Shown: positions 37,039 to 49,464 of the stretch, piece by piece
Layout: every line of letters starts with the position of its first letter
Position numbering within the stretch: the first letter of the stretch is position 1
Program-made: the position numbers and the translations under genes
NCBI GenBank assembly: GCA_965220745.1
Contig: CBDCQT010000012.1
Coordinates: 512,001 to 576,000 of the forward strand
Direction of reading: 5' to 3'
Length of the DNA: 64,000 bases
DNA from: Alphaproteobacteria bacterium
GTDB lineage: Bacteria > Pseudomonadota > Alphaproteobacteria > UBA828
The notes under the pieces: generated by a model
Seen by the model: only the letters and a program-made list of their open reading frames with translations
What the model was told of the DNA's origin: nothing
The model's database searches: none

Positions 37039-37981
37039 TCATGCGTCTTCCTCAAAATTCGCGTGGGCGAGTGTCGCAGCCCCGAGATCGGCAAGCGCGG
37101 AGCCGGAGGACTTGAAGAGCGTGATTTCCTGTTCGTCGCCGCGGCCGGCGACGGTTCCCCGGCAGAGGCCCGTCAGGTCGCCCGCGATCCGCTCCTCCGT
37201 CAGCGCGCCGGACCGGATCGGCCCGATGATGTCGCCGCTCTCTTTCAAGGCTCCCTCCGTATCGATGTAGACGCGCGCGGCGCACCGCCGCGTCGTCGGC
37301 TTCGCGCATGTGGGGCCTGAAGCTCCCGATCAGGTCGAGATGCTGTCCAGGCCTGAGCCACGCGCCCGCGATCAGTGGGTCGATTGCCAGCGTCGCGCAG
37401 CTGATGATGTCGGCGTCCGCCACCGCAGCCTCGAGATCCGTCGCGGCCGCGGCACGAAACCCCGCGCCGTTCAGCCTTCGCGCCAGCCGTTCGGCATTCT
37501 CCGCATTGATGTTCCAGACCGTGACATCCTCGATCGGACGCACGGCACGAAACGCATCCGCCAGGTTGGCGGCGACCCGCCCGGCGCCGACCACCAGCAG
37601 CCGGCGCGCGTCCGCGGGCGCCAGGTGGCTCGCCGCCAGTGCGGCGGTGGCGGCGGTGCGCCGGTCGGTGAGTTCGCCGCCGTCCAGCGCCGCCAGGTGC
37701 CGCCCGGTCTTCGCATCGAAGAGAAGATAGGACGAGGACACCGAGGGGACTCCGGCGGCCGCGTTGCCCGGATTGACGTTCACGATCTTGACCCCGCCCA
37801 GGCCCGCCGGGTTCCACGCGGGCATCAGGAGCAGCGCCGCGTCCGGCTGCCCGTCAAGCGCGATGGCGTGGTGATGCCGCAAGGGCGCGGCGGCGCCGGC
37901 CCGGAACATCTCCCGCAGCGCCTCGATCAGCGCGCCGAACGGCAGCAGGTCTCGGGTCTCTTCGGCACTGAAGACACGCAT
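37039..37981 (-). pseudogene. Ornithine cyclodeaminase / mu-crystallin family, frameshifted
   Basis: LLMPAW, GVKIVNV, ELTDRRTAA and GAGRVA in one frame; VYIDTEGALKESGD...FKSSG.ALAD in another; shift in a CG run near 37271-37279. Confidence 0.85.
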
Positions 37982-38190: not shown

Positions 38191-39705
38191 TCACGGCACC
38201 ATCGGACCGGCCCACCGATTGAGGCCAACGTCGTCGTCCGCAACGCGCAAGTGCATTTCGCGCCAATATGGCAGCAGCCTGTCGGCGTCTTCGGCCACCC
38301 GGGCGAGATCCTGCCGGAACCCGGCAGAGAGGTGACGCACTTCCTCCTTGACCCACTCCTCGTCCACCGTGAGCACATTCCCGTTCTCAACGACAACCTC
38401 GCCGCCCACCATCGTGAGGACGACGGACGAGCCGTTCTCGCTGTAAATCAGTTGCCGTCGCAAGTCGTTGAGCGGCGTAAAGGCCGTTGTGTTGAGATCC
38501 AGCAGAATCAGATCGGCCTGGTAGCCTGGCGCCAGCATTCCAAGCTCGTCCTGGAGGCACATGCCGCGGGCTCCGCCACGAGTCAAAGACCACAGAAGCT
38601 CGGATGCCTTGGGCCACTTCAGCCAATCCGGCTCCGAAATTCTGTGCATCACACCGGCGGTTTTCGCTACACCCCAGAGATTGAAGGTGCCATCCACCGC
38701 CATGTCATCTATTCCGAGGCCAATGGGAATTCCTCTGTCCCAAAGGCGCCGATAAGGCATGACACCGCTACCGATCCACAGGTTGCTTACAGGATTGTGA
38801 ACCACCGAGCAGCCGCAGTCCGCGATGGCATCAATGTCGTGTTCATCCGCCCAGATGGCGTGAATGATCATGACATGTTCATCCAGGCATCCGAGATCCC
38901 TCGCATATTGGAAGAACGACTTTCCATGTTTATGGAGTGCCAGAACTCTTTGGTACTTCTGTTCGCCGATATGCATGTCAAACGCCAATCCATGCTTCCG
39001 GCTCAAACGGGAGAGCGCCCTGAAGTAATCGGAAGTTACGCGTTCCGGGGTAGATATTGACACCGCGGCACGCAAGCGGCCGCCTCCAGCACCGTGCCAC
39101 CGCTCAATATAGCGATCGTAAAGCCCTAACAGGTGGTCCGGTGAAATTGCTGCGGCAGACTCGTCCATTCGCTGCCGAATCTCGTTGGGCAGCATGTCTT
39201 TAACGTACGGATACTTCTCGTATTCTGGAACGATGGGGTAGGCGATCGTCGCCGTTGCACGCATTCCGGAATCCAGATAGGCCTGCATGGTACCGTCAAT
39301 TGAAGCCTCCGTCGGAACCGGCGCGTAATGCGGGTCGTCGTGAACGGCCGTGATGCCGTTCTTCAGCATTTCGATGGCGCCCCAAAGTACGCGTACGTAA
39401 TGGAGATGCCGGTCCGGCGGCTCCGTGCTTCCGTACCCGTAAAGCATGAGCACGGAGAGCGGTACGTCCAGATCCACACCGCGCATCAGATTGCTTCCGG
39501 AGTGGAGATGTCCGTTGACAAGGCCCGGCATGGCGAGGAGCCCTTCGGCATCGATCACACGCAGATCGCGCTCGCTCTCGGAAGGACGGATATCGGGTTC
39601 AAGTGCCTCGATCTTCGTCCCGCGGACAAGAATGTCGGCCCGTTCAAACTCGGTGTCGTGGTCATCCATTGTGAGCACGCGCGCATTCTTGATGAGTACC
39701 GCCAT
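38191..39705 (-). CDS. Metal-dependent amidohydrolase (SsnA/AtzA/MTA-deaminase-like)
   Basis: PGLVNGHLH, MHIGE, IHAIW, HNPVSN, GIDD and ADLILL. Confidence 0.9.
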   Translation of the reverse strand: MAVLIKNARVLTMDDHDTEFERADILVRGTKIEALEPDIRPSESERDLRVIDAEGLLAMPGLVNGHLHSGSNLMRGVDLDVPLSVLMLYGYGSTEPPDRHLHYVRVLWGAIEMLKNGITAVHDDPHYAPVPTEASIDGTMQAYLDSGMRATATIAYPIVPEYEKYPYVKDMLPNEIRQRMDESAAAISPDHLLGLYDRYIERWHGAGGGRLRAAVSISTPERVTSDYFRALSRLSRKHGLAFDMHIGEQKYQRVLALHKHGKSFFQYARDLGCLDEHVMIIHAIWADEHDIDAIADCGCSVVHNPVSNLWIGSGVMPYRRLWDRGIPIGLGIDDMAVDGTFNLWGVAKTAGVMHRISEPDWLKWPKASELLWSLTRGGARGMCLQDELGMLAPGYQADLILLDLNTTAFTPLNDLRRQLIYSENGSSVVLTMVGGEVVVENGNVLTVDEEWVKEEVRHLSAGFRQDLARVAEDADRLLPYWREMHLRVADDDVGLNRWAGPMVP

Positions 39706-39967: not shown

Positions 39968-41014
39968 ATGGGCAGGACGGGTGCCGAGCCGCAACGATGG
40001 GACGCGACAAGTCCCGCCCGGTCCGGAGATGCCGTCCTTTCGGTCGAGCGTCTGAGGACCTATTTCGACACGCCGGCCGGCGTGGTGAAGGCGGTCGACG
40101 ACGTCTCCTTCAGCTTGAACCGCGGGGACATTCTCGCCATCGTCGGCGAGTCCGGTTCGGGCAAGAGCGTCACCGCCCAGTCCATCATGAAGCTGGTCGC
40201 CATGCCGCCTGGCCGATACGCAAGCGGCCAGGTAGTCCTGGACGGAATCGATCTCCTGTCGCAGAGCGAAAGGGCGCTCGGCGCGATACGCGGCAAGCGC
40301 ATTTCGATGATTTTTCAGAACCCGCGTGCCGCGCTCAACCCTGCCTTTACCGTCTCGACGCTGATGGTAGAGACGCTGCGCCGCCACGATTCTTCGCTCT
40401 CGAAGACGGAGGCGGTCAAGCGCGCCGCGGCGCTCTTGCGCGCGGTCGATTTTCCCGATCCCGAGCGTGTTGCCGCGAGCTATCCCCATCAGATGAGCGG
40501 TGGCATGTGCCAGCGGGTAGGCGTGGCGCTGAGCATGGCCTGCGAGCCGGAAGTGCTCATCGCCGACGAGCCGACAACCGCCCTCGACGTTCTGGTGCAA
40601 GCGACGATTCTTCTTCTCCTGAAGCGCGCGCATGCGGAGCGCGGACTCTCGATCATTCTGATCACCCACGACTTCGGCGTCCTGCGGGCGCTGGCCACCC
40701 GAGTCATCGTCATGTACGCCGGGCAGATACAGGAGCAGGGCCGGGTCGACGACGTTCTCGCCAATCCGCAGCACCCGTACACGAAAGCGCTGATCCAGGC
40801 GGTGCCCGATCCGGATAGCACCGACCAACGGCTTCACCAGATCGAAGGCCAGCCGCCCGATCTGCTGAACCTGCCCGCCGGCTGCAGCTTCGCCGATCGC
40901 TGCGCCTTCGTCATGCCCAAGTGTCGGAGCGAGCGCCCGGAACTCTACGAGGCCGCAGCGGGGACCGACGTTCGCTGTCACTTGTTCGGGCCGGAAGCGA
41001 GCGCGCACCAGTGA
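39968..41014 (+). CDS. Oligopeptide/dipeptide ABC ATP-binding subunit (DppD-like)
   Basis: GESGSGKS, MSGGMCQR, DEPTTALD and HPYT. Confidence 0.93.
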   Translation: MGRTGAEPQRWDATSPARSGDAVLSVERLRTYFDTPAGVVKAVDDVSFSLNRGDILAIVGESGSGKSVTAQSIMKLVAMPPGRYASGQVVLDGIDLLSQSERALGAIRGKRISMIFQNPRAALNPAFTVSTLMVETLRRHDSSLSKTEAVKRAAALLRAVDFPDPERVAASYPHQMSGGMCQRVGVALSMACEPEVLIADEPTTALDVLVQATILLLLKRAHAERGLSIILITHDFGVLRALATRVIVMYAGQIQEQGRVDDVLANPQHPYTKALIQAVPDPDSTDQRLHQIEGQPPDLLNLPAGCSFADRCAFVMPKCRSERPELYEAAAGTDVRCHLFGPEASAHQ

Positions 41015-42120
41015 GCGAACCCCTCATCAAGGTGCGCGGCCTGCGCAAGGCCTTCCCCGTGCGAGAGGGAACAGTCCTGCGCAAGAAGGTCGGCGAGATC
41101 GTGGCTGTGGACGACATCAGCTTCGATGTCTTCGAGGGCGAGACTCTGGGCTGCGTCGGCGGCTCAGGCTCGGGGAAGTCCACTCTAGGGCGGCTGATTC
41201 TCAACCTGATCCGCGCCGATGTGGGAAGCGTCCAATTCGGCGATGCCGATCTGGTCGGCCTCTCCCCGGCTGAGATGCGTCCCTATAGGAAGGATTTGCA
41301 GATCGTCTTCCAGGACCCCCTGCACACGCTCAACCCGCGGCGCACGGTTGCGGAGAACGTCACGCGCTCGATGCTCAACTTCGATATCCCGCGCCAGGAG
41401 GCCAGGGAGCGGGTCCAGTACCTCTTCGACATCGTCGGCCTCAACCCGGCGCATACCAATCGCTATCCGCACGAGTTCAGTGGAGGGCAGTGTCAGCGCA
41501 TCGGCATCGCCCGCGCGCTGGCTCTCGAGCCGCGCTTTCTCTTTCTGGACGAGCCGGTCTCGGCGCTCGATGTCTCGATTCAGGGGCAGATCCTCAATCT
41601 GTTGAAGGAGCTGCAAGAGACCCTTCAGTTGACTTATCTCTTCGTCTCTCACGACCTGAAGCTGGTGAAGAATTTCTCCGACCGCATTCTCGTTCTTTAC
41701 CACGGCCGCGCCGTCGAAATCGGTGGCAGCGACGAGGTCTATCATCAGCCGAAGCATCCCTACACCAGGACGCTCCTCGATGCGGTGCTGGGCCTCAAGA
41801 AGGACGACGCCTGGGAGAGGGTCGCAAGCCAAACCGGCGTGCTTGCCGACGACGAAGACCTTGAGAGCGCCATGCGCGCCTCTGCGGCGGCAAGAACCGG
41901 CTGCATCTATTCCGGCACCTGCACGGAGCGCTTCGAACCGTGTGCCACGCAGATGCCCGAGCTACGGGAAATCGAGGCGAGCCACGCCGTAGCCTGTCAT
42001 CTTTACGAGGGCTCGAAGAAAGACTGGAACGCGTCGGCGGCCGCCGGGGACGCACGACGTGAACGCGAACACGCTCTCCGGCAGGCGCGCGACGAGAATG
42101 CGCGCCAACTCATGACATAA
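41011..42120 (+). CDS. Oligopeptide/dipeptide ABC ATP-binding subunit (DppF-like)
   Basis: GSGSGKST, FSGGQCQR and DEPVSALD; GTG overlaps the upstream TGA. Confidence 0.92.
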   Translation: MSEPLIKVRGLRKAFPVREGTVLRKKVGEIVAVDDISFDVFEGETLGCVGGSGSGKSTLGRLILNLIRADVGSVQFGDADLVGLSPAEMRPYRKDLQIVFQDPLHTLNPRRTVAENVTRSMLNFDIPRQEARERVQYLFDIVGLNPAHTNRYPHEFSGGQCQRIGIARALALEPRFLFLDEPVSALDVSIQGQILNLLKELQETLQLTYLFVSHDLKLVKNFSDRILVLYHGRAVEIGGSDEVYHQPKHPYTRTLLDAVLGLKKDDAWERVASQTGVLADDEDLESAMRASAAARTGCIYSGTCTERFEPCATQMPELREIEASHAVACHLYEGSKKDWNASAAAGDARREREHALRQARDENARQLMT

Positions 42121-42137
42121 AGAGGGAGGACAAGATC

Positions 42138-43781
42138 ATGAAAGGGTGGCTTAAAGGTATGGGCCGGGTGAGCCCGACGTGGCTGTGTCGTCACGCCGTG
42201 GGAATCCTCGCCTTGGTGGCGCTTGCCGCGGGGTCGCTGATCGTGGCGGACAAGCCGGCGCAGGCGCAGGACAAGACCATCGTTCTTGCCGTGGAAGGCG
42301 AGCCCAGTCGTCTCGATCCCCATACACATGTGTTGTGGCTCACCTATCGCGAAACGTTCCACATTTACGAAAGCTTCGTGCAGCAAGACCTGACCATCAA
42401 GGACGTCGATCGTCCGCCGGTCATTCCCGCTCTTGCCACGAGCTGGGACATCTCCGAGGACAAGCTGCAATACACGTTCCATCTGCGCCAGGGGGTCACC
42501 TTCCACGACGGAACGCCGTGGAACGCCGATGTCGCGAAGTTCAATTTCGATCGGGTCCTCGACAAGGACTTCGAGCACTTCTATCCGCTGGCCAACGCCT
42601 TCAACGGCTGGTGGCACGGCGATATCGAGAGCTACGAAGTCGTCGACGAGTACACGTTCCGGGTCAACATGAAGCAGCCGAATTCCGAGTTCATCCGGCG
42701 GCTCTCGCAGGGCGGTTTCGGCTCCTCGGGCATGATCAGCCCCAAGGTCGTGGAGACCCACGGCAACGAGGAGGCGCATCTGCACGGCGTCGGCACCGGC
42801 CCGTTCAAGCTGACGGAGCGTGTCTTCGGCGAAAAGATCGTGATGGAGCGCAACGCCGACTATTGGGACCCCAATCGGATTCCCAGGGTCGACAGGCTCA
42901 TCATTCGTGGCATCCCCGATGTCGCGACCCGCGAGCTTGCGCTTCTCACCGGCGAGGTCGATATCATTGCCACGCCGTCTCCGGACTCGACGGACTTTCT
43001 CGCGTCGCAGGGCATGGTCGTCGACATGGCGCCGATCACGACGATCTACAACCTGTGGGTCAACACGCGGCTGAAGCCGCTCGATGATCCTCGTGTCCGG
43101 CGGGCGCTCTACATGGCGATCGACCGTGAGGGTCTGTGCAAATACTTGAGACGTGGCCAATGCTCACCCGCCTACAGCATCTTGAACTATGGCGGACCGG
43201 GCCACGATCCCGACTACCAGCCCTTCCCCTATGACCCGGCCAGGGCCAAGGAGCTGCTGGCGGAGGCCGGTTATCCGGACGGCTTCGACGTGCGCGTCGA
43301 TTGGACGCCGGGCGGCGCCGGCGACGTCAACACCGTGGCCGATGCCGAATGGATTCAGCGTGACTGGGCCCGTATCGGCGTCAATCTGAGCATCGAGCTC
43401 TTCGAGATCAGCACCTACATGGACACGATGTCCCAGGGCATGCGTGAGGGCACCGGCTTCATGCAGCTCTCCTGGGGTGAGAGCGCGTTCCATTGGCTCG
43501 ACGCCGTCATCTCGCCGGCAGCCTTGCCGCCCAACGGCTTCAATGCCGGGTATTACGACAACCCGAGGATCGGTGAGCTGCTTTCCATGGCGCGGGCTGC
43601 GCTGACCGAAGAAGAGATGGTGGCCCACCTCAGGGAGATCCAACGGATCGTCATCGAGGAAGACACGGCCTTTATTCCCACCCACAGCCCGTGGGGAGTC
43701 TACGCCATGCGGCCCAATCTCAAGGGCTTCGTGCTTGCACCGCAGCACTGGCACGACATGGCGATTGTCGACAAAGAATAA
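42138..43781 (+). CDS. ABC substrate-binding protein, family 5
   Basis: Signal peptide, LATSWDIS, LRQGVTFHDG, GTGPF and AKELLAEAGYPDG. Confidence 0.93.
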   Translation: MKGWLKGMGRVSPTWLCRHAVGILALVALAAGSLIVADKPAQAQDKTIVLAVEGEPSRLDPHTHVLWLTYRETFHIYESFVQQDLTIKDVDRPPVIPALATSWDISEDKLQYTFHLRQGVTFHDGTPWNADVAKFNFDRVLDKDFEHFYPLANAFNGWWHGDIESYEVVDEYTFRVNMKQPNSEFIRRLSQGGFGSSGMISPKVVETHGNEEAHLHGVGTGPFKLTERVFGEKIVMERNADYWDPNRIPRVDRLIIRGIPDVATRELALLTGEVDIIATPSPDSTDFLASQGMVVDMAPITTIYNLWVNTRLKPLDDPRVRRALYMAIDREGLCKYLRRGQCSPAYSILNYGGPGHDPDYQPFPYDPARAKELLAEAGYPDGFDVRVDWTPGGAGDVNTVADAEWIQRDWARIGVNLSIELFEISTYMDTMSQGMREGTGFMQLSWGESAFHWLDAVISPAALPPNGFNAGYYDNPRIGELLSMARAALTEEEMVAHLREIQRIVIEEDTAFIPTHSPWGVYAMRPNLKGFVLAPQHWHDMAIVDKE

Positions 43782-43790
43782 ACAATAAGG

Positions 43791-43830
43791 TGGGGCGGTC
43801 TCGCCGGCGATTTCCTGCCGGCGGGGCCGC
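43791..43830 (+). promoter_or_regulatory. Intercistronic hairpin after the SBP gene
   Basis: GCGGTCTCGCCGGC...GCCGGCGGGGCCGC stem between SBP and permease; position fits an mRNA-stabilising or attenuating stem. Confidence 0.45.
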
Positions 43831-43851
43831 TACTGCCCCTCCGAGCCGACC

Positions 43852-44796
43852 ATGCTCAGATTCATTATCTGGCGCTTGATTCACGTGGTGCCGGTTCTAC
43901 TCGGCGTTTCTTTCGTCGTTTTCAGCATTCTCTATCTCATTCCAGGCGACATCGCGACCACGCTGCTCTCGATGTTCTACACCGAGGAGCGCGCGGCCAT
44001 GCTGCGCGAGCAACTCGGCCTGGACAGGCCGATGTTCGTCCAATACGGCCGCTGGCTCTGGGCCGCGTTGCACGGCGATCTCGGCCAGTCGCTCATGATG
44101 CGGATGCCGGTGATGACCGTGCTGCTGGACAAGACCGGAAACTCGCTCATCCTGACCGGTGCAAGTTTGCTCATCGTCATTCCGGTGAGCTTCCTGATGG
44201 GCACCGCGTCTGCGGCCCGTTTCCGCAAGCCCTTCGACCGCTTTACCGTCTTCTTCTCGCTGCTGCTCGCGAGCATGCCGGTCTTCTGGCTTGGGATTGC
44301 GCTGCTCTACCTGTTCGGCGTGCGGATACCGCTCTTTCCCATGTCGGGCATGTACAACATGGCCAATCCAGGCGGCATCCTTGACCTGCTTCATCACCTA
44401 TTCCTGCCGGCGGTGACTACGGCGGCCACCTCGGTCGCCATCGTGACGCGGGTCACCCGAGGCGCCATGCTCGATACGTTGAGCCAGCCCTATATCCTGG
44501 CTGCACGGTCGCGCGGATTGCCGGGGTCACGGGTGATCTATCGCCACGGCGTGCGCAATATTTTGCCGACCTTCTCCAACATGATCGGCCTGCAGATCGG
44601 TTATCTATTCGGCAGCGCCATCTTTTCGGAAATCATCTTCAACTGGCCCGGAATCGGCCTGCAGCTTTACCAGTCGATCCTGCATCGCGATCTGACAATG
44701 GTGCAGGGCTGCGTGCTGGCCGTCGCCATCATATTCGTCCTGGGCAATATGTTGGCCGACATCATCGTCTACGCCCTCGACACCACCCGGAAGTAG
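43852..44796 (+). CDS. ABC permease (DppB-like)
   Basis: LGLDRP, GDLGQS, EAA-like YILAARSRGL and FNWPGIG. Confidence 0.93.
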   Translation: MLRFIIWRLIHVVPVLLGVSFVVFSILYLIPGDIATTLLSMFYTEERAAMLREQLGLDRPMFVQYGRWLWAALHGDLGQSLMMRMPVMTVLLDKTGNSLILTGASLLIVIPVSFLMGTASAARFRKPFDRFTVFFSLLLASMPVFWLGIALLYLFGVRIPLFPMSGMYNMANPGGILDLLHHLFLPAVTTAATSVAIVTRVTRGAMLDTLSQPYILAARSRGLPGSRVIYRHGVRNILPTFSNMIGLQIGYLFGSAIFSEIIFNWPGIGLQLYQSILHRDLTMVQGCVLAVAIIFVLGNMLADIIVYALDTTRK

Positions 44797-44811
44797 CGAG
44801 GGCGGCGTCGC

Positions 44812-45741
44812 ATGGCCACGGGCAGGATCAGGAGGAGCAGGGCATCGAAGCGCTCCCGACGCAGCGTGGAGACGGAGCGCGCGCGGTCGACGCTCTATTT
44901 CATCTGGCGCGGTATTCGCAACGATCCCTACGGGATGGCCGGCGCCCTGATCATCCTGGTTCTCGTGATTTGCGCGCTGTTCGCGCCCTATATCGCGCCC
45001 TACGACCCGCAGTATGCCGACCCGAGGCTGCGGCTGCGCGGTCCGGGAACCGAGGGTCACATCCTGGGCTTGGACCAGCAGGGGCGGGACATCCTCTCGC
45101 GCCTAATCTACGGCACCCGTTACTCGCTCATCGCCGGAGTCACGCCAGTCGTGCTCGGCGGCCTCATTTCGATCCCCCTCGGTACCATTGCCGCGTACTA
45201 CGAGCGTGTCGGCTATTTCATCATGCGCTCCATGGATGTGCTGTTCGCATTTCCCATGGTGCTGCTGGCGATCACGCTCTCCTTCTTCATGGGGCCGGGG
45301 CTCGGCAATCTGATCATCGCCCTCGTCGTGGTCCTGATCCCCTACAACACGCGCGTCGTCTACGTGCAGGCGCTGGCGCAGAAGGAGCAGGGCTATATCG
45401 AAGCCGCCCGCGCCGATGCGACCAGCGATTTCAAGATTCTGTTCGTCGAGATGCTGCCCCACGTCGTATCCGCATCGGTCGTCTATTCCATGACCATCGT
45501 GGGGACGATCGTGGTGACGGCGGCAGGGCTGAGCTTCCTCGGCCTCGGGGTGCAGCCGCCCACGCCCGAGTGGGGCATCATGACCAGTGACGGCCGCACC
45601 GTGCTGCACATCGCCCCCCACGTCTCGACCCTGCCGGGAGTGGCGATCTTTCTCATGGTCACGGGCTTCAACCTGCTCGGCGACAGCCTGCGCGACGCGC
45701 TCGATCCGAAGACAAGGCTGGTGCGGGCCGGGGCACGATAG
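44812..45741 (+). CDS. ABC permease (DppC-like)
   Basis: GRDILSRLIYG, YIEAARA, LSFLGLGVQPPTPEWG and LRDALDP. Confidence 0.93.
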   Translation: MATGRIRRSRASKRSRRSVETERARSTLYFIWRGIRNDPYGMAGALIILVLVICALFAPYIAPYDPQYADPRLRLRGPGTEGHILGLDQQGRDILSRLIYGTRYSLIAGVTPVVLGGLISIPLGTIAAYYERVGYFIMRSMDVLFAFPMVLLAITLSFFMGPGLGNLIIALVVVLIPYNTRVVYVQALAQKEQGYIEAARADATSDFKILFVEMLPHVVSASVVYSMTIVGTIVVTAAGLSFLGLGVQPPTPEWGIMTSDGRTVLHIAPHVSTLPGVAIFLMVTGFNLLGDSLRDALDPKTRLVRAGAR

Positions 45742-45788: not shown

Positions 45789-47027
45789 ATGACCAAGACA
45801 CGATTGATGCCCAAGAATCACTGGGACTGGAGCATGCCCGTGCCGTTCTCGCAGGGGTGGAAGATCGACGACGTGATCTTCGTCGGCGGTCAGGTCTCCG
45901 CCGATGCCCAGGGCCGACCCGTCGGGGCCGGCGACATCGCGGTGCAGACGCGAAACACGTTCGAGTTCATCAAGCGAGTCCTGGAGGAGGCCGGCGGCGA
46001 TCTCTCCGACATCGTGAAGCTCAACACCTACTACCAGCACGACGGGGAGGGCGCCGACATCACCCGCTTCTGGGAGGAGATGACCGAGGTCAGGAAGGAA
46101 TACCTGGCCGATCCCGGCCCGGTGGGCACGGCCGTCCGTGTTCGGGGCTTCGCCTACGAGGGCCTGCTCATCGAGATCGAGGCCATCGCCGTCGTCGGCC
46201 GCAAGAAGCAACGGCTCATGCCCGCCAATCACTGGGACTGGAGCATTCCGGTCCCATTCTCCCAGGGCTGGAAGGTGGACGATCTGATCTTCGTTGGAGG
46301 ACAGATATCATCTGACGACAGAGGGCGCACCATCGCACCCGGCGACATCGGCCAGCAGGTGAGGAACGTCTTCGGCTCGATCCGGAGCGTGCTCAGGGAG
46401 GGCGGCGCGGAGCTCTCCGACCTCATAAAGTTCAATACCTACTACCAGTTCGAGGGCGAAGGCGACGCGCTCCGGCAATACTGGGAAGACATGACCAAGG
46501 TCCGCATGGAGTATCTCAGCGATCCGGGCCCTGCCGGTACCGCGGTCCGGGTCAACGGCTTCGCCTTTGAGGATCTGCTCATCGAGATCGAAGGCATCGC
46601 CTATGTGGGCGCAGACAAACAGCGCCTGATGCCCGCCAACCATTGGGACTGGAGCATACCGGTCCCGCTCTCGCAGGGCTGGAAGGTCGGCGACTACATC
46701 TTCGTCGGCGGGCAGATATCAGGCGACAGCAAGGGCAGCGCCATCGGCGTCGGCGACATCGCCACGCAGACCCGCAACACCTTCGAGAACATCCGCGCGG
46801 TGCTGAAGGAGGCCGGGGCGGACCTGGAGCACATCGTGCGCCTCAACACTTACTACGACCAGGTTGGCGAGGGTCAGGCGTTGCAGGACTACTGGGAGGC
46901 CATGACCAAAGTTCGGATGGACTATCTCGCGAACCCGGGGCCGGTCGGCACCGCCGTTCGCGTCAACGGTCTCGGCTACCAGGATCTGCTTATCGAAATC
47001 GAGGCCATCGCCTACGTCGGGTCGTGA
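45789..47027 (+). CDS. Protein of three tandem Rid (YjgF/YER057c/UK114) domains
   Basis: Three 137-aa units with an exact 411-bp period, each with SQGWK..IFVGGQ, IV/IKLNTYY-like and LIEIEA/GIA. Confidence 0.9.
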   Translation: MTKTRLMPKNHWDWSMPVPFSQGWKIDDVIFVGGQVSADAQGRPVGAGDIAVQTRNTFEFIKRVLEEAGGDLSDIVKLNTYYQHDGEGADITRFWEEMTEVRKEYLADPGPVGTAVRVRGFAYEGLLIEIEAIAVVGRKKQRLMPANHWDWSIPVPFSQGWKVDDLIFVGGQISSDDRGRTIAPGDIGQQVRNVFGSIRSVLREGGAELSDLIKFNTYYQFEGEGDALRQYWEDMTKVRMEYLSDPGPAGTAVRVNGFAFEDLLIEIEGIAYVGADKQRLMPANHWDWSIPVPLSQGWKVGDYIFVGGQISGDSKGSAIGVGDIATQTRNTFENIRAVLKEAGADLEHIVRLNTYYDQVGEGQALQDYWEAMTKVRMDYLANPGPVGTAVRVNGLGYQDLLIEIEAIAYVGS

Positions 47028-47063
47028 TTGGATAACCCGTCTTGGCGCCAAGGAGGAACTGAC

Positions 47064-47969
47064 ATGATCAAGAACCCCGTTCCCTGGCCGGACGGCGCCA
47101 AGTGCGCCGCTGCCATCACATTCGACATCGATACCGACAGCATCCTGCATCTCGAGCACAGGGAGAGGGCGGATACGATGCTGTCGTCGCTGTCGTGGCT
47201 GAAATACGACGAGGTGGCGATCCCGCGCATTCTCGACATGTACCGGGACTGCGGCATCAAGCAGACCTTCTTCTATCCGGCGTGGTGCATGGAGCGCTAT
47301 CCCCATCTCGTCGAGATGATCCTCAAGGATGGCCACGAGATTGCAGCCCACGGCTACATTCACGAAGACCCGAACAAGCTGCCGCGGGAGGAAGAGCACT
47401 ACTGGTTGAGGCGCCAGATCGACGTCATCGAAAAGATGACCGGCCAGCGCCCGCGCGGCTGGCGCGGCCCGCTTTACAACGCGTCCAAGTACTCGGTCGA
47501 CCTCTTGATCGAGGAGGGGCTCATCTACGACGCCACGCTGATGGGCGACGACGTGCCCTACGTCCTGAAGACAGCGCAGGGGAGCGTCATCGAGCTTCCC
47601 TCCCACTGGGCGATGGACGATTGGCCGCACTACACCCATTCGTTCGACTTCAACTACATGATGACGATCAAGTCGCCGGACGAGGCGATGAACGTCTTCA
47701 TGTCCGAGTTCGAGGCCATGTACGACTTCGGTGGCCTCTGGGTGACCGTGTGGCACCCCTTCGTCTCCGGGCGCCTCGCCCGCTGCCGCCGCGTCCAGCA
47801 GATGATCGAGTACATGCAGAGCAAGGGTGGCGTCTGGTTCACAACCATGGAGGAGATCGCCAAACACGTCCAAGCGTGCATAGACGACGGCAGCTGGACG
47901 CCGCGCGTGGACAACCTGCCCTATTACGACGGCTTGGTGCCGGAACTGGAGAGGCTGGCTGCCGAGTAA
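47064..47969 (+). CDS. Polysaccharide deacetylase (CE4, PuuE/HpPgdA-like)
   Basis: TFDIDTD, HEIAAHGYIHE, GWRGP, DDWPH and WHPFVSGR; no signal peptide; GGAGG SD. Confidence 0.88.
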   Translation: MIKNPVPWPDGAKCAAAITFDIDTDSILHLEHRERADTMLSSLSWLKYDEVAIPRILDMYRDCGIKQTFFYPAWCMERYPHLVEMILKDGHEIAAHGYIHEDPNKLPREEEHYWLRRQIDVIEKMTGQRPRGWRGPLYNASKYSVDLLIEEGLIYDATLMGDDVPYVLKTAQGSVIELPSHWAMDDWPHYTHSFDFNYMMTIKSPDEAMNVFMSEFEAMYDFGGLWVTVWHPFVSGRLARCRRVQQMIEYMQSKGGVWFTTMEEIAKHVQACIDDGSWTPRVDNLPYYDGLVPELERLAAE

Positions 47970-48018: not shown

Positions 48019-49464
48019 ATGGCTGGCACGACGCTCATCAGGAACGCCGACTGGGTCGTGGGCTACGACCCCGACAGGGACGGTCACGTCTACATGCGCG
48101 GCGCCGACGTGGCCTTCGCGAACGACACGATCATCCACGTCGGCAGAGACTATGGTGGCGAGGCCGAGCATGTCATCGACGGCAAGGACGTGATGGTCCT
48201 TCCCGGAATGCTCGATCTTCATCTGCATGGCTACATGGAAATGCACGGCAAGGGATTCTTCGAAGACCTTGCCACCAAGCATATGTGGATGACGCAGCTG
48301 CTCGAGTACACGTGGATCCTGCAGGACGACAAGGAATCGTCATTTGCCGCGACCCAGGCGTCGGCCTGCGATCTGCTGAAGAGCGGCTGCACCACGATGG
48401 CGGAACTCTACTGTTCCGGCCTGCCGTTCGACGGATGGGTGGACATGCTCGCAGGCACGGGTATTCGGACCTATGCGTGCCCCATGGTGCAGTCCGCTCA
48501 CTGGTACACGTCCAACGGCAAGGATCACCTCTACGAGTGGTACGAAGAGAAGGGCTTCGAGAACCTCGAGCGATCCCTTGAGATAATCGACGACGCGATT
48601 GCGCATCCCAGCGGCCGCTTGCACGGGATGGTTGGCCCGGCCCAGGCCGACACCTGTACGGAAGAGATGTTTCGGCGGTGCAAGGAGGCCGCTGACTCCA
48701 GAGGGATTCTGTTGCAGACCCATGCTGCACAGTCCGTCATGGAACATCGCGAGATGGTCCGGCGCCACGGCAAGACGCCGATCGAATGGCTGGACGATAT
48801 CGGCGTGCTCGGCCCGAACACGCTGCTAGGGCACGCCATCGACATCGACCAGCATCCCTGGGTCAACCACCACGAGCATCGCGACCTGGAACGCCTCGCC
48901 CGGTCCGGATCGTCTGTCGTGCATTGCCCGCGCGCCTTCGCCCAGTGGGGAGACATGATGCGGAGCCTCGGCGGTTACCGCGCCGCCGGCGTCAACATGG
49001 CGCTCGGCACCGATTGCTACCCGCACGATCTGGTCGAGGAGATGCGAATCGCCGGTCTCATGTCGAAGGTGGCGAGCGGCCATGTCGACCTGCTGCCGAC
49101 CGACGCGGTGTTCGAGATCGCAACGTTGGGCGCTGCCAGGGCGCTCGGCCGGGACGACCTGGGGCGCTTGGCGTCAGGCGCCAAGGCGGATCTCGCCCTG
49201 GTCGATCTGCGTCATCCCTCGATTCGCCCGGTGCGCGATCCGCTGAAGTGCCTAATCTATTCCGGCACAGCCGCGGCGGTCCGCGACGTATTCGTGAACG
49301 GAGAGCAAGTGGTGAAGGACCGCACCGTACTCACGGTCGATCAGGACGATGCGCTGGACCGTCTGCAGGAGGGCCAAAAGCGGGCGCTCGACCGAATTCC
49401 GGAACTGGACTGGGCGAAGCGCAGCGCCGACGACATGTCTCCCTTCTGCCTGCCGATCGACTGA
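48019..49464 (+). CDS. Metal-dependent amidohydrolase (deaminase/chlorohydrolase-like)
   Basis: PGMLDLHLH, THAAQS, GHAI, HCP, GTDC and KADLALVD. Confidence 0.9.
   Translation: MAGTTLIRNADWVVGYDPDRDGHVYMRGADVAFANDTIIHVGRDYGGEAEHVIDGKDVMVLPGMLDLHLHGYMEMHGKGFFEDLATKHMWMTQLLEYTWILQDDKESSFAATQASACDLLKSGCTTMAELYCSGLPFDGWVDMLAGTGIRTYACPMVQSAHWYTSNGKDHLYEWYEEKGFENLERSLEIIDDAIAHPSGRLHGMVGPAQADTCTEEMFRRCKEAADSRGILLQTHAAQSVMEHREMVRRHGKTPIEWLDDIGVLGPNTLLGHAIDIDQHPWVNHHEHRDLERLARSGSSVVHCPRAFAQWGDMMRSLGGYRAAGVNMALGTDCYPHDLVEEMRIAGLMSKVASGHVDLLPTDAVFEIATLGAARALGRDDLGRLASGAKADLALVDLRHPSIRPVRDPLKCLIYSGTAAAVRDVFVNGEQVVKDRTVLTVDQDDALDRLQEGQKRALDRIPELDWAKRSADDMSPFCLPID

Follow-up and report, generated by a model that had tools for sequence, protein, structure and literature searches.

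A Triple Rid Protein without Arg105: Architecture, Relatives and a Possible Role beside Amide-Bond Hydrolases

Introduction

The window discussed in this article is a stretch of 64,000 nucleotides from Alphaproteobacteria bacterium (lineage UBA828; GenBank assembly GCA_965220745.1, contig CBDCQT010000012.1, positions 512,001 to 576,000 of the forward strand). At 45789..47027, on the forward strand, it holds a gene for a protein of 412 amino acids (aa; P0001) that is built from three tandem Rid domains, none of which has an arginine in the column of Arg105 of Escherichia coli RidA. The gene lies in an operon between the genes of a peptide-type importer and two hydrolase genes. A first-pass annotation, made by a model from the letters alone, had drawn attention to the gene, and here we follow up its claims by profile searches, structure prediction, domain trees and a survey of gene neighbourhoods.

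Tandem triple fusions of Rid domains are already on record. Niehaus (2015, BMC Genomics 16:382, PMC4433059) named them “3x-RidA”, with EF_0115 of Enterococcus faecalis as an example, described them as “presumably covalently linked trimer units” and noted that two- and four-domain forms are rare. As set out there, the subfamilies Rid4 to Rid7 lack Arg105 and their function is unknown. The architecture is therefore not new, as the first-pass annotation had supposed it might be. Its refuting condition, an architecture already characterized, applies in part: the published work describes such proteins but does not characterize them biochemically. Our literature searches found no later characterization of 3x-RidA or EF_0115, and searches on triple Rid proteins or on RidA clusters with HpaB, cyclase or pyrrole-2-carboxylate monooxygenase genes returned only PMC4433059 as relevant. 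Rid proteins that figure in papers on the degradation of nicotine and paracetamol belong, as these papers present them, to other subfamilies.

Three Units in One Gene

The gene starts with ATG at 45789, with GAGGA about 10 nucleotides upstream, and ends with TGA at 47025-47027. Its reading frame is open for 412 codons, in which homologous units of 137 aa begin at 45801, 46212 and 46623, that is, with an exact period of 411 bp. Unit 1 comprises residues 5-141 (45801..46211), unit 2 residues 142-278 (46212..46622) and unit 3 residues 279-412 (46623..47024), all on the forward strand. The first-pass annotation had read this arrangement correctly from the sequence, and the profile search that it called for agrees: the Pfam model PF01042 (Rid/YjgF/YER057c/UK114) matches the protein in three stretches with E = 8e-60 and 200.6 bits, against a gathering cut-off of 27.3. 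The units are 66-67% identical to one another as proteins, and a BLASTP comparison of units 1 and 3 gives 68% identity with E = 7e-70.

The DNA tells a different story from a recent copy. Identity between the units is 70-71%, different codons are used at 41-44% of the identical residues, and synonymous divergence (dS) is about 1.0-1.16. Tandem Repeats Finder did not detect the 411-bp array at the DNA level, as is expected at 70% DNA identity, and the repeat was demonstrated at the protein level instead. Because the units are diverged in DNA and give no signal in that program, the repeat is real, is old by the measure of its DNA and did not arise as an echo of the assembly, which had also been the view of the first-pass annotation. 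Compared with the orthologues in three other loci (L002, L004 and L106), the ratio of nonsynonymous to synonymous divergence (dN/dS) lies between 0.04 and 0.15 in every unit; all three are thus under purifying selection and none of them is decaying. Ten orthologues are 82-97% identical to the protein, and nine of them are also 412 aa long. The explanation that we are dealing with an artefact, be it an echo of the assembly, a tandem duplication of recent date or a gene in decay, has nothing but the exact 411-bp period in its favour and is refuted by this divergence, by the selection on each unit and by the existence of at least 109 full-length homologues and 182 genome loci; we give it practically no chance.

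Gly for Arg105, and an Arg Four Residues On

The units were aligned with RidA, RutC and YjgH of E. coli (sequences from NC_000913.3). Each unit reads PGP(V/A)GTAVRV and, near its end, LLIEIE(A/G)IA. Along the strand that carries Arg105, RidA has P-A-R105-S-C-V-E-V, RutC P-A-R-F-C-I-Q-C, YjgH P-N-W-T-A-V-G-V and the units P-V/A-G-T-A-V-R-V. The column of Arg105 is thus occupied by Gly113 (46125..46127), Gly250 (46536-46538) and Gly387 (46947-46949), and the HMMER alignment to the PDB entry 2dyy likewise places Gly there. The first-pass annotation had noticed the absence of Arg105 from all three units and had wondered whether the Arg of TAVRV might take its place in an alignment. This Arg (Arg117, 46137..46139; Arg254, 46548-46550; Arg391, 46959-46961) comes four residues later (+4), in the column of the Glu in “CVEV” of RidA, and so is not at position 105.

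The same pattern runs through the relatives. We counted columns in 109 full-length homologues (proteins of 395-445 aa among the 120 matches listed, plus the query), which amount to 327 domains. The residues at the Arg105 column are G/T/A/D/S/L (domain 1), G/A/V (domain 2) and G/A/S/V/L/I/Y (domain 3), and never Trp; neither Arg nor Lys was found at this column or within one residue of it in any of the 327 domains. The +4 Arg is kept in 79, 102 and 108 of the 109 homologues in domains 1, 2 and 3, respectively, and this conservation makes it a candidate for a substrate-binding arginine that has been relocated along the strand.

The remaining active-site columns are closer to those of RidA. Every unit retains the Gly31 and Glu120 of E. 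coli RidA, and in place of Tyr17 the units have Phe, Phe and Leu. From unit to unit, the residues differ only at the Tyr17 column (F/F/L) and at column 104 (V/A/V), while G, A, R and E are identical. With active-site columns so nearly alike, the three inter-domain clefts of the 412-aa protein should be nearly equivalent, and the three non-equivalent pockets that had been proposed for it are not borne out; asymmetry between units is seen in paralogues and in other clades, not in this protein. Relative to RidA there are two insertions, one of 3 residues (HWD) near the N-terminus and one of about 6 residues (GEG...W) before helix 2. There are four conserved Trp residues per unit, making twelve in the chain. 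The Trp-rich N-terminal “arm”, which had been taken for an extra appendage, turns out to align with the ordinary first 20 or so residues of RidA plus the 3-residue insertion.

Predicted Fold

The first-pass annotation had inferred a single-chain Rid “trimer” and suggested structure prediction as a check. The AlphaFold2 model of the 412-aa protein, made from an alignment of 32 rows, is confident (predicted local distance difference test, pLDDT, 92.9; predicted template modelling score, pTM, 0.93) and shows one chain folded as a three-fold pseudo-trimer. When it was compared with the PDB by Foldseek, the matches over most of the chain (367-372 columns) were all chorismatases (4bps, 5a3k, 5ag3), followed by single Rid chains. 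VIA-align superposes the chorismatases with Z-scores of 27.8-28.0 over 293-294 residues at a root mean square deviation (rmsd) of 3.0, and about 40 Rid monomers, each on one domain, with Z-scores of 10-12.6. By sequence, the PDB contains only single-domain relatives, the best being 2dyy (1.5e-15). The superposition on chorismatases over most of the chain, together with the confident model, supports in silico the idea of a single-chain pseudo-trimer, a covalent copy of the Rid homotrimer with three predicted inter-domain clefts.

Chains of the human protein FBXO22 (8ua6, 8ua3, 8s7d, 8s7e) were also matched, with Z-scores of 15.3-16.6 over 255-275 residues of the model, well above those of the Rid monomers. 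This model-based comparison suggests that part of this F-box protein may have a related three-lobed fold.

A Clade with Single and Triple Forms

A search with unit 3 matched 283 proteins of 73-235 aa. Among them, 17 aligned single-domain proteins, including Bacillus-group and actinobacterial ones, are 60-72% identical to unit 1 and share with it MPxxHWDWSxPVPFSQGW, QTRN, NTYY, PGPxGT..R and LLIE.EAIA. HWDW occurs in 102 of the 113 matching proteins of 125-165 aa, and most of them read GP(V/C/A)GT..R. Judged by these identities, the units resemble single-domain Firmicutes proteins about as closely as they resemble one another. The alignments thus define a distinct and tightly constrained Rid clade, hereafter the HWDW-type clade, that exists in a single-domain form of about 140 aa and in a fused triple form; its sequence signature is the replacement of Arg105 by Gly, Ala or Thr together with a conserved Arg four residues on along the same strand. 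A search of the ESM Atlas returned only generic “RidA” clusters. A search for fused forms of greater length (722-2060 aa) found none, and no protein that joins a Rid domain to a hydrolase came to light; this is weak evidence.

How does this clade relate to the Rid proteins already described? The 3x-RidA proteins share with the 412-aa protein three tandem Rid domains and a length of about 400 aa; they are set apart by their description, which places them in the RidA subfamily with its hallmark Arg105 (PMC4433059), whereas the 412-aa protein has Gly. The main text of that paper makes no mention of a deacetylase, a cyclase or a monooxygenase. With the RidA model TIGR00004 the single units score 61, 50 and 64 bits, below the cut-off of 106.25, and the whole chain reaches 165 bits, above the cut-off, only because three domains are summed. 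With the RutC equivalog model TIGR03610, whose cut-off is 169, each unit scores 36-48 bits. The domain fold is the same as in RidA, TdcF and RutC (Z-scores 11-12.6, rmsd 1.4-2.1) and the Gly31 and Glu120 columns are kept, but the 412-aa protein is fused, has Gly for Arg105 and Arg at the Glu of RidA (+4), and carries the two insertions. Its gene resembles rutC in that both lie in an operon with transporter and amidohydrolase genes; E. coli RutC reads PAR where the 412-aa protein reads PVG or PAG. Rid4 and Rid7 have Trp at the Arg105 position (PNWT in E. coli YjgH), in contrast to the Gly of all three units and to the Gly, Ala or Thr, with Arg at +4, of the clade.

The chorismatases FkbO and Hyg5 (4bps, 5a3k, 5ag3) are alike in that three fused YjgF-like domains in a single chain imitate the Rid trimer. 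They differ in sequence (13-16% identity) and in length (331-335 aa), and their domains are highly diverged and form one active site, while the units of the 412-aa protein are 66-68% identical. A Pfam scan of the 412-aa protein at E <= 0.01 found only PF01042 and a weak PF21220, and no chorismatase-type family.

Distribution and Fusion History

The genome survey covered contigs from one genome per species. Among 260 candidate stretches, 182 encode a relative of the triple protein, and gene context was taken from the best 80. These 80 loci belong to Alphaproteobacteria (Rhodospirillales, Dongiaceae, Hyphomicrobiales and others), Planctomycetota and Acidobacteriota. In a plasmid collection there were two triple-Rid matches from Mesorhizobium, of which H3 adjoins a gene of the Xaa-Pro peptidase family and has no CE4 gene, and two single-domain matches that adjoin cyclase, M20 and flavin-reductase genes.

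The source genome itself has 20 matches to PF01042 and three triple-Rid genes. One paralogue, at C12:378876-380111 (L104:8876-10111), encodes a protein of the HWDW type that is 53% identical to the 412-aa protein; its middle unit is degenerate and has lost HWDW. The third gene, at C3:112185-113378 (L105:8185-9378), encodes a protein of 397 aa with Trp at the Arg105 column (PAWT). By virtue of this Trp the 397-aa protein belongs to a different subfamily, so that triple fusion has occurred in another Rid subfamily as well.

Domain trees were inferred with FastTree for 389 domains and with IQ-TREE for 83 domains. Neither tree gathers each position into a clade of its own: 10-16 changes of the position labels are required, and the well-supported branches alone force 5-7. 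Under the approximately unbiased (AU) test, a tree in which all third domains form one clade is rejected (p = 0.00096). In several cases all three units of one protein cluster together, with support from the approximate likelihood ratio test (SH-aLRT) of 99 for P0059/P0086, 96 for P0038 and 98 for the 12 domains of P0013, P0026, P0033 and P0038. Furthermore, units 2 and 3 of P0051, P0081, P0045 and P0060 group with units 1 and 2 of P0048, P0056, P0083, P0100, P0119, P0070, P0041 and P0054 (SH-aLRT 95-96), as if the order of the domains had been shifted by one between the two groups. Such mixing of positions points to repeated fusion or to intragenic homogenization (gene conversion). The single old triplication that the first-pass annotation had assumed therefore holds within the local clade of 16 proteins around the 412-aa protein, in which each position is monophyletic (support 98-99; FastTree), but not family-wide, where the domain trees need several events.

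The Operon and Its Surroundings

Upstream of the triple Rid gene and in the same direction lies an importer of the Opp/Dpp-type ATP-binding cassette (ABC) family (39968..45741, forward strand). It consists of two ATPases (39968-41014 and 40921-42120), a family-5 binding protein (42138-43781) and two permeases (43852-44796 and 44812-45741). Downstream, also on the forward strand, there follows a gene for a CE4 “polysaccharide deacetylase” or PuuE-like hydrolase (47064..47969), whose best match in the PDB, 3rxz (5.8e-60), is uncharacterized, and which also matches PuuE (3cl6, 1.6e-19). Its reading frame is open from TTG 47028, right after the Rid stop codon; translation probably starts at ATG 47064, which a good ribosome-binding site (AAGGAGG) precedes, so that the gap is 36 nucleotides and an automatic annotation that began at 47028 would probably include 12 codons too many. 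The last gene of the operon encodes an ATZ/TRZ-type (chlorohydrolase/deaminase) amidohydrolase (48019..49464, forward strand; 360 bits with PRK06151, cut-off 416).

A second ATZ/TRZ-type amidohydrolase, recognized by profile matches, is encoded divergently from the operon (38191..39705, reverse strand). Beyond it, at the edge of the block described below and likewise divergent, lies a gene for a reductase of the ornithine-cyclodeaminase family (37052-37981, reverse strand). This gene scores 317.8 bits with the model for Delta1-pyrroline-2-carboxylate/Delta1-piperideine-2-carboxylate reductase (cut-off 322), over model positions 1-238 of 314.

The block at 38-50 kb, which holds the whole catabolic cluster and the second amidohydrolase, has a G+C fraction of 0.60-0.64, against 0.67-0.72 in its flanks. 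It lies between housekeeping genes, with the pyruvate dehydrogenase genes and a radical-SAM gene (probably lipoyl synthase) upstream and with recJ, glpX and hom (homoserine dehydrogenase) downstream. This block of about 12 kb looks like an acquired island. A scan for promoters and terminators over 37-50.6 kb found sites no more numerous than in shuffled sequences.

Neighbours across Genomes

The survey of gene neighbourhoods that had been suggested with the first-pass annotation reveals a recurrent partner. Neighbour genes of the window were compared by tblastn with the 80 genome loci, and CE4 genes were counted within 9 kb. CE4 is found near the triple Rid gene in 22 of the 80, which are 22 of the 31 proteobacterial loci and none of the 49 others. 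It stands immediately downstream on the same strand in 11 of them, is divergent and upstream in 9 and is farther away in 2. In loci below 80% identity, CE4 is better conserved than the Rid protein (50-77% versus 49-70%). The window-type amidohydrolase (at least 75% identity) occurs in nine genome loci (L001-L005, L007-L009 and L015) and, in the metagenomes, at L106 and L107; eight of the nine genome loci have it just 3' of CE4, and eight have ABC genes. The ABC importer genes have the order of the window in L002, L004, L005, L007 and L015.

Pfam scans widen this picture. For the triple form, 83 of 149 picked open reading frames (ORFs) from 14 loci were scanned; greedy picking of the longest ORFs in loci of high G+C content produced antisense ORFs, which had no Pfam matches and were ignored. 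An HpaB-family oxygenase is present in 5 of these loci, a flavin reductase in 2, and a diiron monooxygenase with an NMT1-type ABC system in 1, while the six planctomycete and acidobacterial loci showed no recurrent neighbour. The HWDW-type paralogue of the source genome (C12) has as neighbours a CE4 gene in divergent orientation, genes for an AsnC regulator and a diiron monooxygenase, and an NMT1-type ABC system.

The context of the single-domain form was studied in 79 metagenome loci, 28 of which have at least 1 kb on both sides. Among these 28, a cyclase-family hydrolase lies within 300 nucleotides in 13 and, when the distance is extended to 8 kb, in 18; M20 hydrolases occur in 17 loci, HpaB in 8, a flavin reductase in 7 and CE4 in 1. 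The eight metagenome loci with the triple form, by comparison, have adjacent CE4 in 3, HpaB in 4 and a cyclase in none. A Pfam scan of ten single-domain loci (71 of 124 picked ORFs; four loci and distal ORFs were dropped) identified Cyclase PF04199 in 6, the NCS1 permease PF02133 in 5, M20 in 6, HpaB in 3 and a diiron monooxygenase in 3.

Clusters of PF04199 cyclase, M20 hydrolase, NCS1 permease and oxygenase recur among the single-domain loci (L114, L122, L129, L132, L159, L172 and others), the oxygenase being either HpaB, accompanied by a flavin reductase, or a diiron monooxygenase together with a YHS domain. A described pathway composed of cyclase, M20, NCS1, oxygenase and Rid was not found in our literature searches.

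The constant theme is a Rid gene of the clade beside a gene for a metal-dependent amide hydrolase, CE4 with the triple form and the cyclase family with the single form. Transporters of the nucleobase or peptide type are common near these genes, as are further amidohydrolases, and many of the loci also have an oxygenase.

What Might the Protein Do?

So far as neighbours can tell, the genes around it speak for a catalytic role that follows the action of amide hydrolases. The E. coli rut operon, by its annotation, encodes a permease, RutA and RutF (an oxygenase and a flavin reductase), the amidohydrolase RutB and the Rid protein RutC, and since the neighbourhoods of the HWDW-type clade parallel this logic, hydrolysis of an enamine or imine is the favoured activity. 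Rid proteins that retain the Arg do hydrolyse imines (PMC4433059). We therefore prefer to see the 412-aa protein as an enamine- or imine-hydrolysing partner of amide-bond hydrolases in the catabolism of a nitrogen compound, with a probability of roughly one half. A nitrogenous substrate would be imported by the Opp/Dpp-type ABC system, and its C-N bonds would be opened by the CE4/PuuE-like hydrolase and the ATZ/TRZ-type amidohydrolase; a partner hydrolase that opens an amide, a lactam or an N-acyl-enamine would release an enamine or imine. This labile product would then be hydrolysed in the Rid clefts to a carbonyl compound and ammonia, which would prevent side reactions. The +4 Arg would replace Arg105 as the anchor for a substrate of different shape. 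Of all this, the analysis itself establishes the architecture, the predicted fold, the pattern of residues, the purifying selection and the linkage of the genes; the chemistry, the substrate and a role of the +4 Arg in binding are inferred. A route from pyrrole-2-carboxylate (monooxygenase, lactam, hydrolase, enamine, Rid) was considered and not kept, as the operon in the window has no oxygenase and nothing speaks for this substrate; it serves as an example of the chemistry only.

Several observations weigh against this proposal. Arg105 is required for imine deaminase activity in the RidA proteins of plants and Salmonella, and “other functions” have been predicted for the Arg-less subfamilies (both from PMC4433059). 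RutC keeps the Arg, so the analogy with Rut stops short of the active site. The operon in the window contains no oxygenase. The homologues of Planctomycetota and Acidobacteriota (42-49% identical) have no CE4 neighbour in any of the 49 loci searched by tblastn or of the 6 scanned with Pfam, and their contexts are heterogeneous. The lack of a Rid-hydrolase fusion counts slightly in the same direction, and literature searches gave no experimental result on any member of the clade.

It may be that the Rid fold carries a different chemistry here, as in the chorismatases, and that the protein is no imine hydrolase at all: tautomerization or isomerization, decarboxylation, or C-O or C-N cleavage of a ring-opened or aromatic intermediate. 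The loss of Arg105 in 327 of 327 domains, the chorismatases as the best structural matches over most of the chain and the association of relatives with HpaB-type or diiron oxygenases would all fit, and the four conserved Trp residues per unit and the two clade-specific insertions would reshape the cleft. We nevertheless regard this as unlikely, given that identity to chorismatases is so low and no Pfam family of their type was matched, that Glu120 is kept, with a conservative change at Tyr17 and a conserved Arg on the same strand, and that the neighbours met most regularly are amide hydrolases, enzymes that yield amines or enamines. Somewhat less probable again is a protein without catalysis that sequesters an aromatic or heterocyclic ligand or a reactive intermediate, or acts as a sensor. 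Twelve Trp residues in a chain without Arg105 would suit such a role, and Rid clefts are described as binding small carboxylates (PMC4433059). Identities of 60-72% between Bacillus, actinobacterial and alphaproteobacterial members, dN/dS of 0.04-0.15 and a position in mid-operon between enzyme genes are, however, more typical of an enzyme, and the regulators at these loci are separate genes of the AsnC, GntR or MerR type.

The close association with hydrolase genes can also be read in another way, namely that the protein is a structural or activating subunit of the CE4 hydrolase (or, for the single forms, of the cyclase-family hydrolase) in a complex that channels its product. The tight adjacency of CE4, with the 36-nucleotide gap in the window and the immediate downstream position in 11 loci, and the swap of the partner family with the Rid form (CE4 with triple, cyclase with single) are in keeping with it. 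We consider it improbable, and the least probable of the functional explanations, because CE4 is transcribed divergently in 9 loci and many homologues have no such neighbour; that no fused protein was found argues weakly in the same sense. The enamine or imine hydrolase thus remains our preferred reading.

A bolder version of it can be put forward as a speculation, which we think rather doubtful as a whole. The HWDW-type clade would be an unrecognized Rid subfamily in which the substrate-binding Arg has moved by four residues. Together with an amide hydrolase (CE4 or cyclase), M20, a nucleobase-type or ABC transporter and often an HpaB-type or diiron monooxygenase, it would form an undescribed and widespread “Rut-like” pathway that opens N-heterocycles or N-acyl enamines and releases ammonia. 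The covalent trimer would have arisen, or have been re-homogenized, several times independently, letting the clefts specialize in some lineages.

Conclusions

What is new here is limited to the variant: an Arg-less clade of the HWDW type whose +4 Arg is putatively relocated, whose hydrolase partner is conserved and whose history of fusion is dynamic. Rid proteins without Arg105 are numerous and almost entirely uncharacterized, and this clade offers an unusually clean handle on them, with its strong conservation, its clear swap of residues (Arg105 to Gly, +4 Glu to Arg) and its constant hydrolase partner. The binding protein of the operon could reveal the substrate, and a single-chain trimer lets the clefts be mutated one by one, which is impossible in homotrimers. 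In practice one might gain a new route of nitrogen-compound catabolism, and a way to test whether imine hydrolysis by Rid proteins can work without Arg105.

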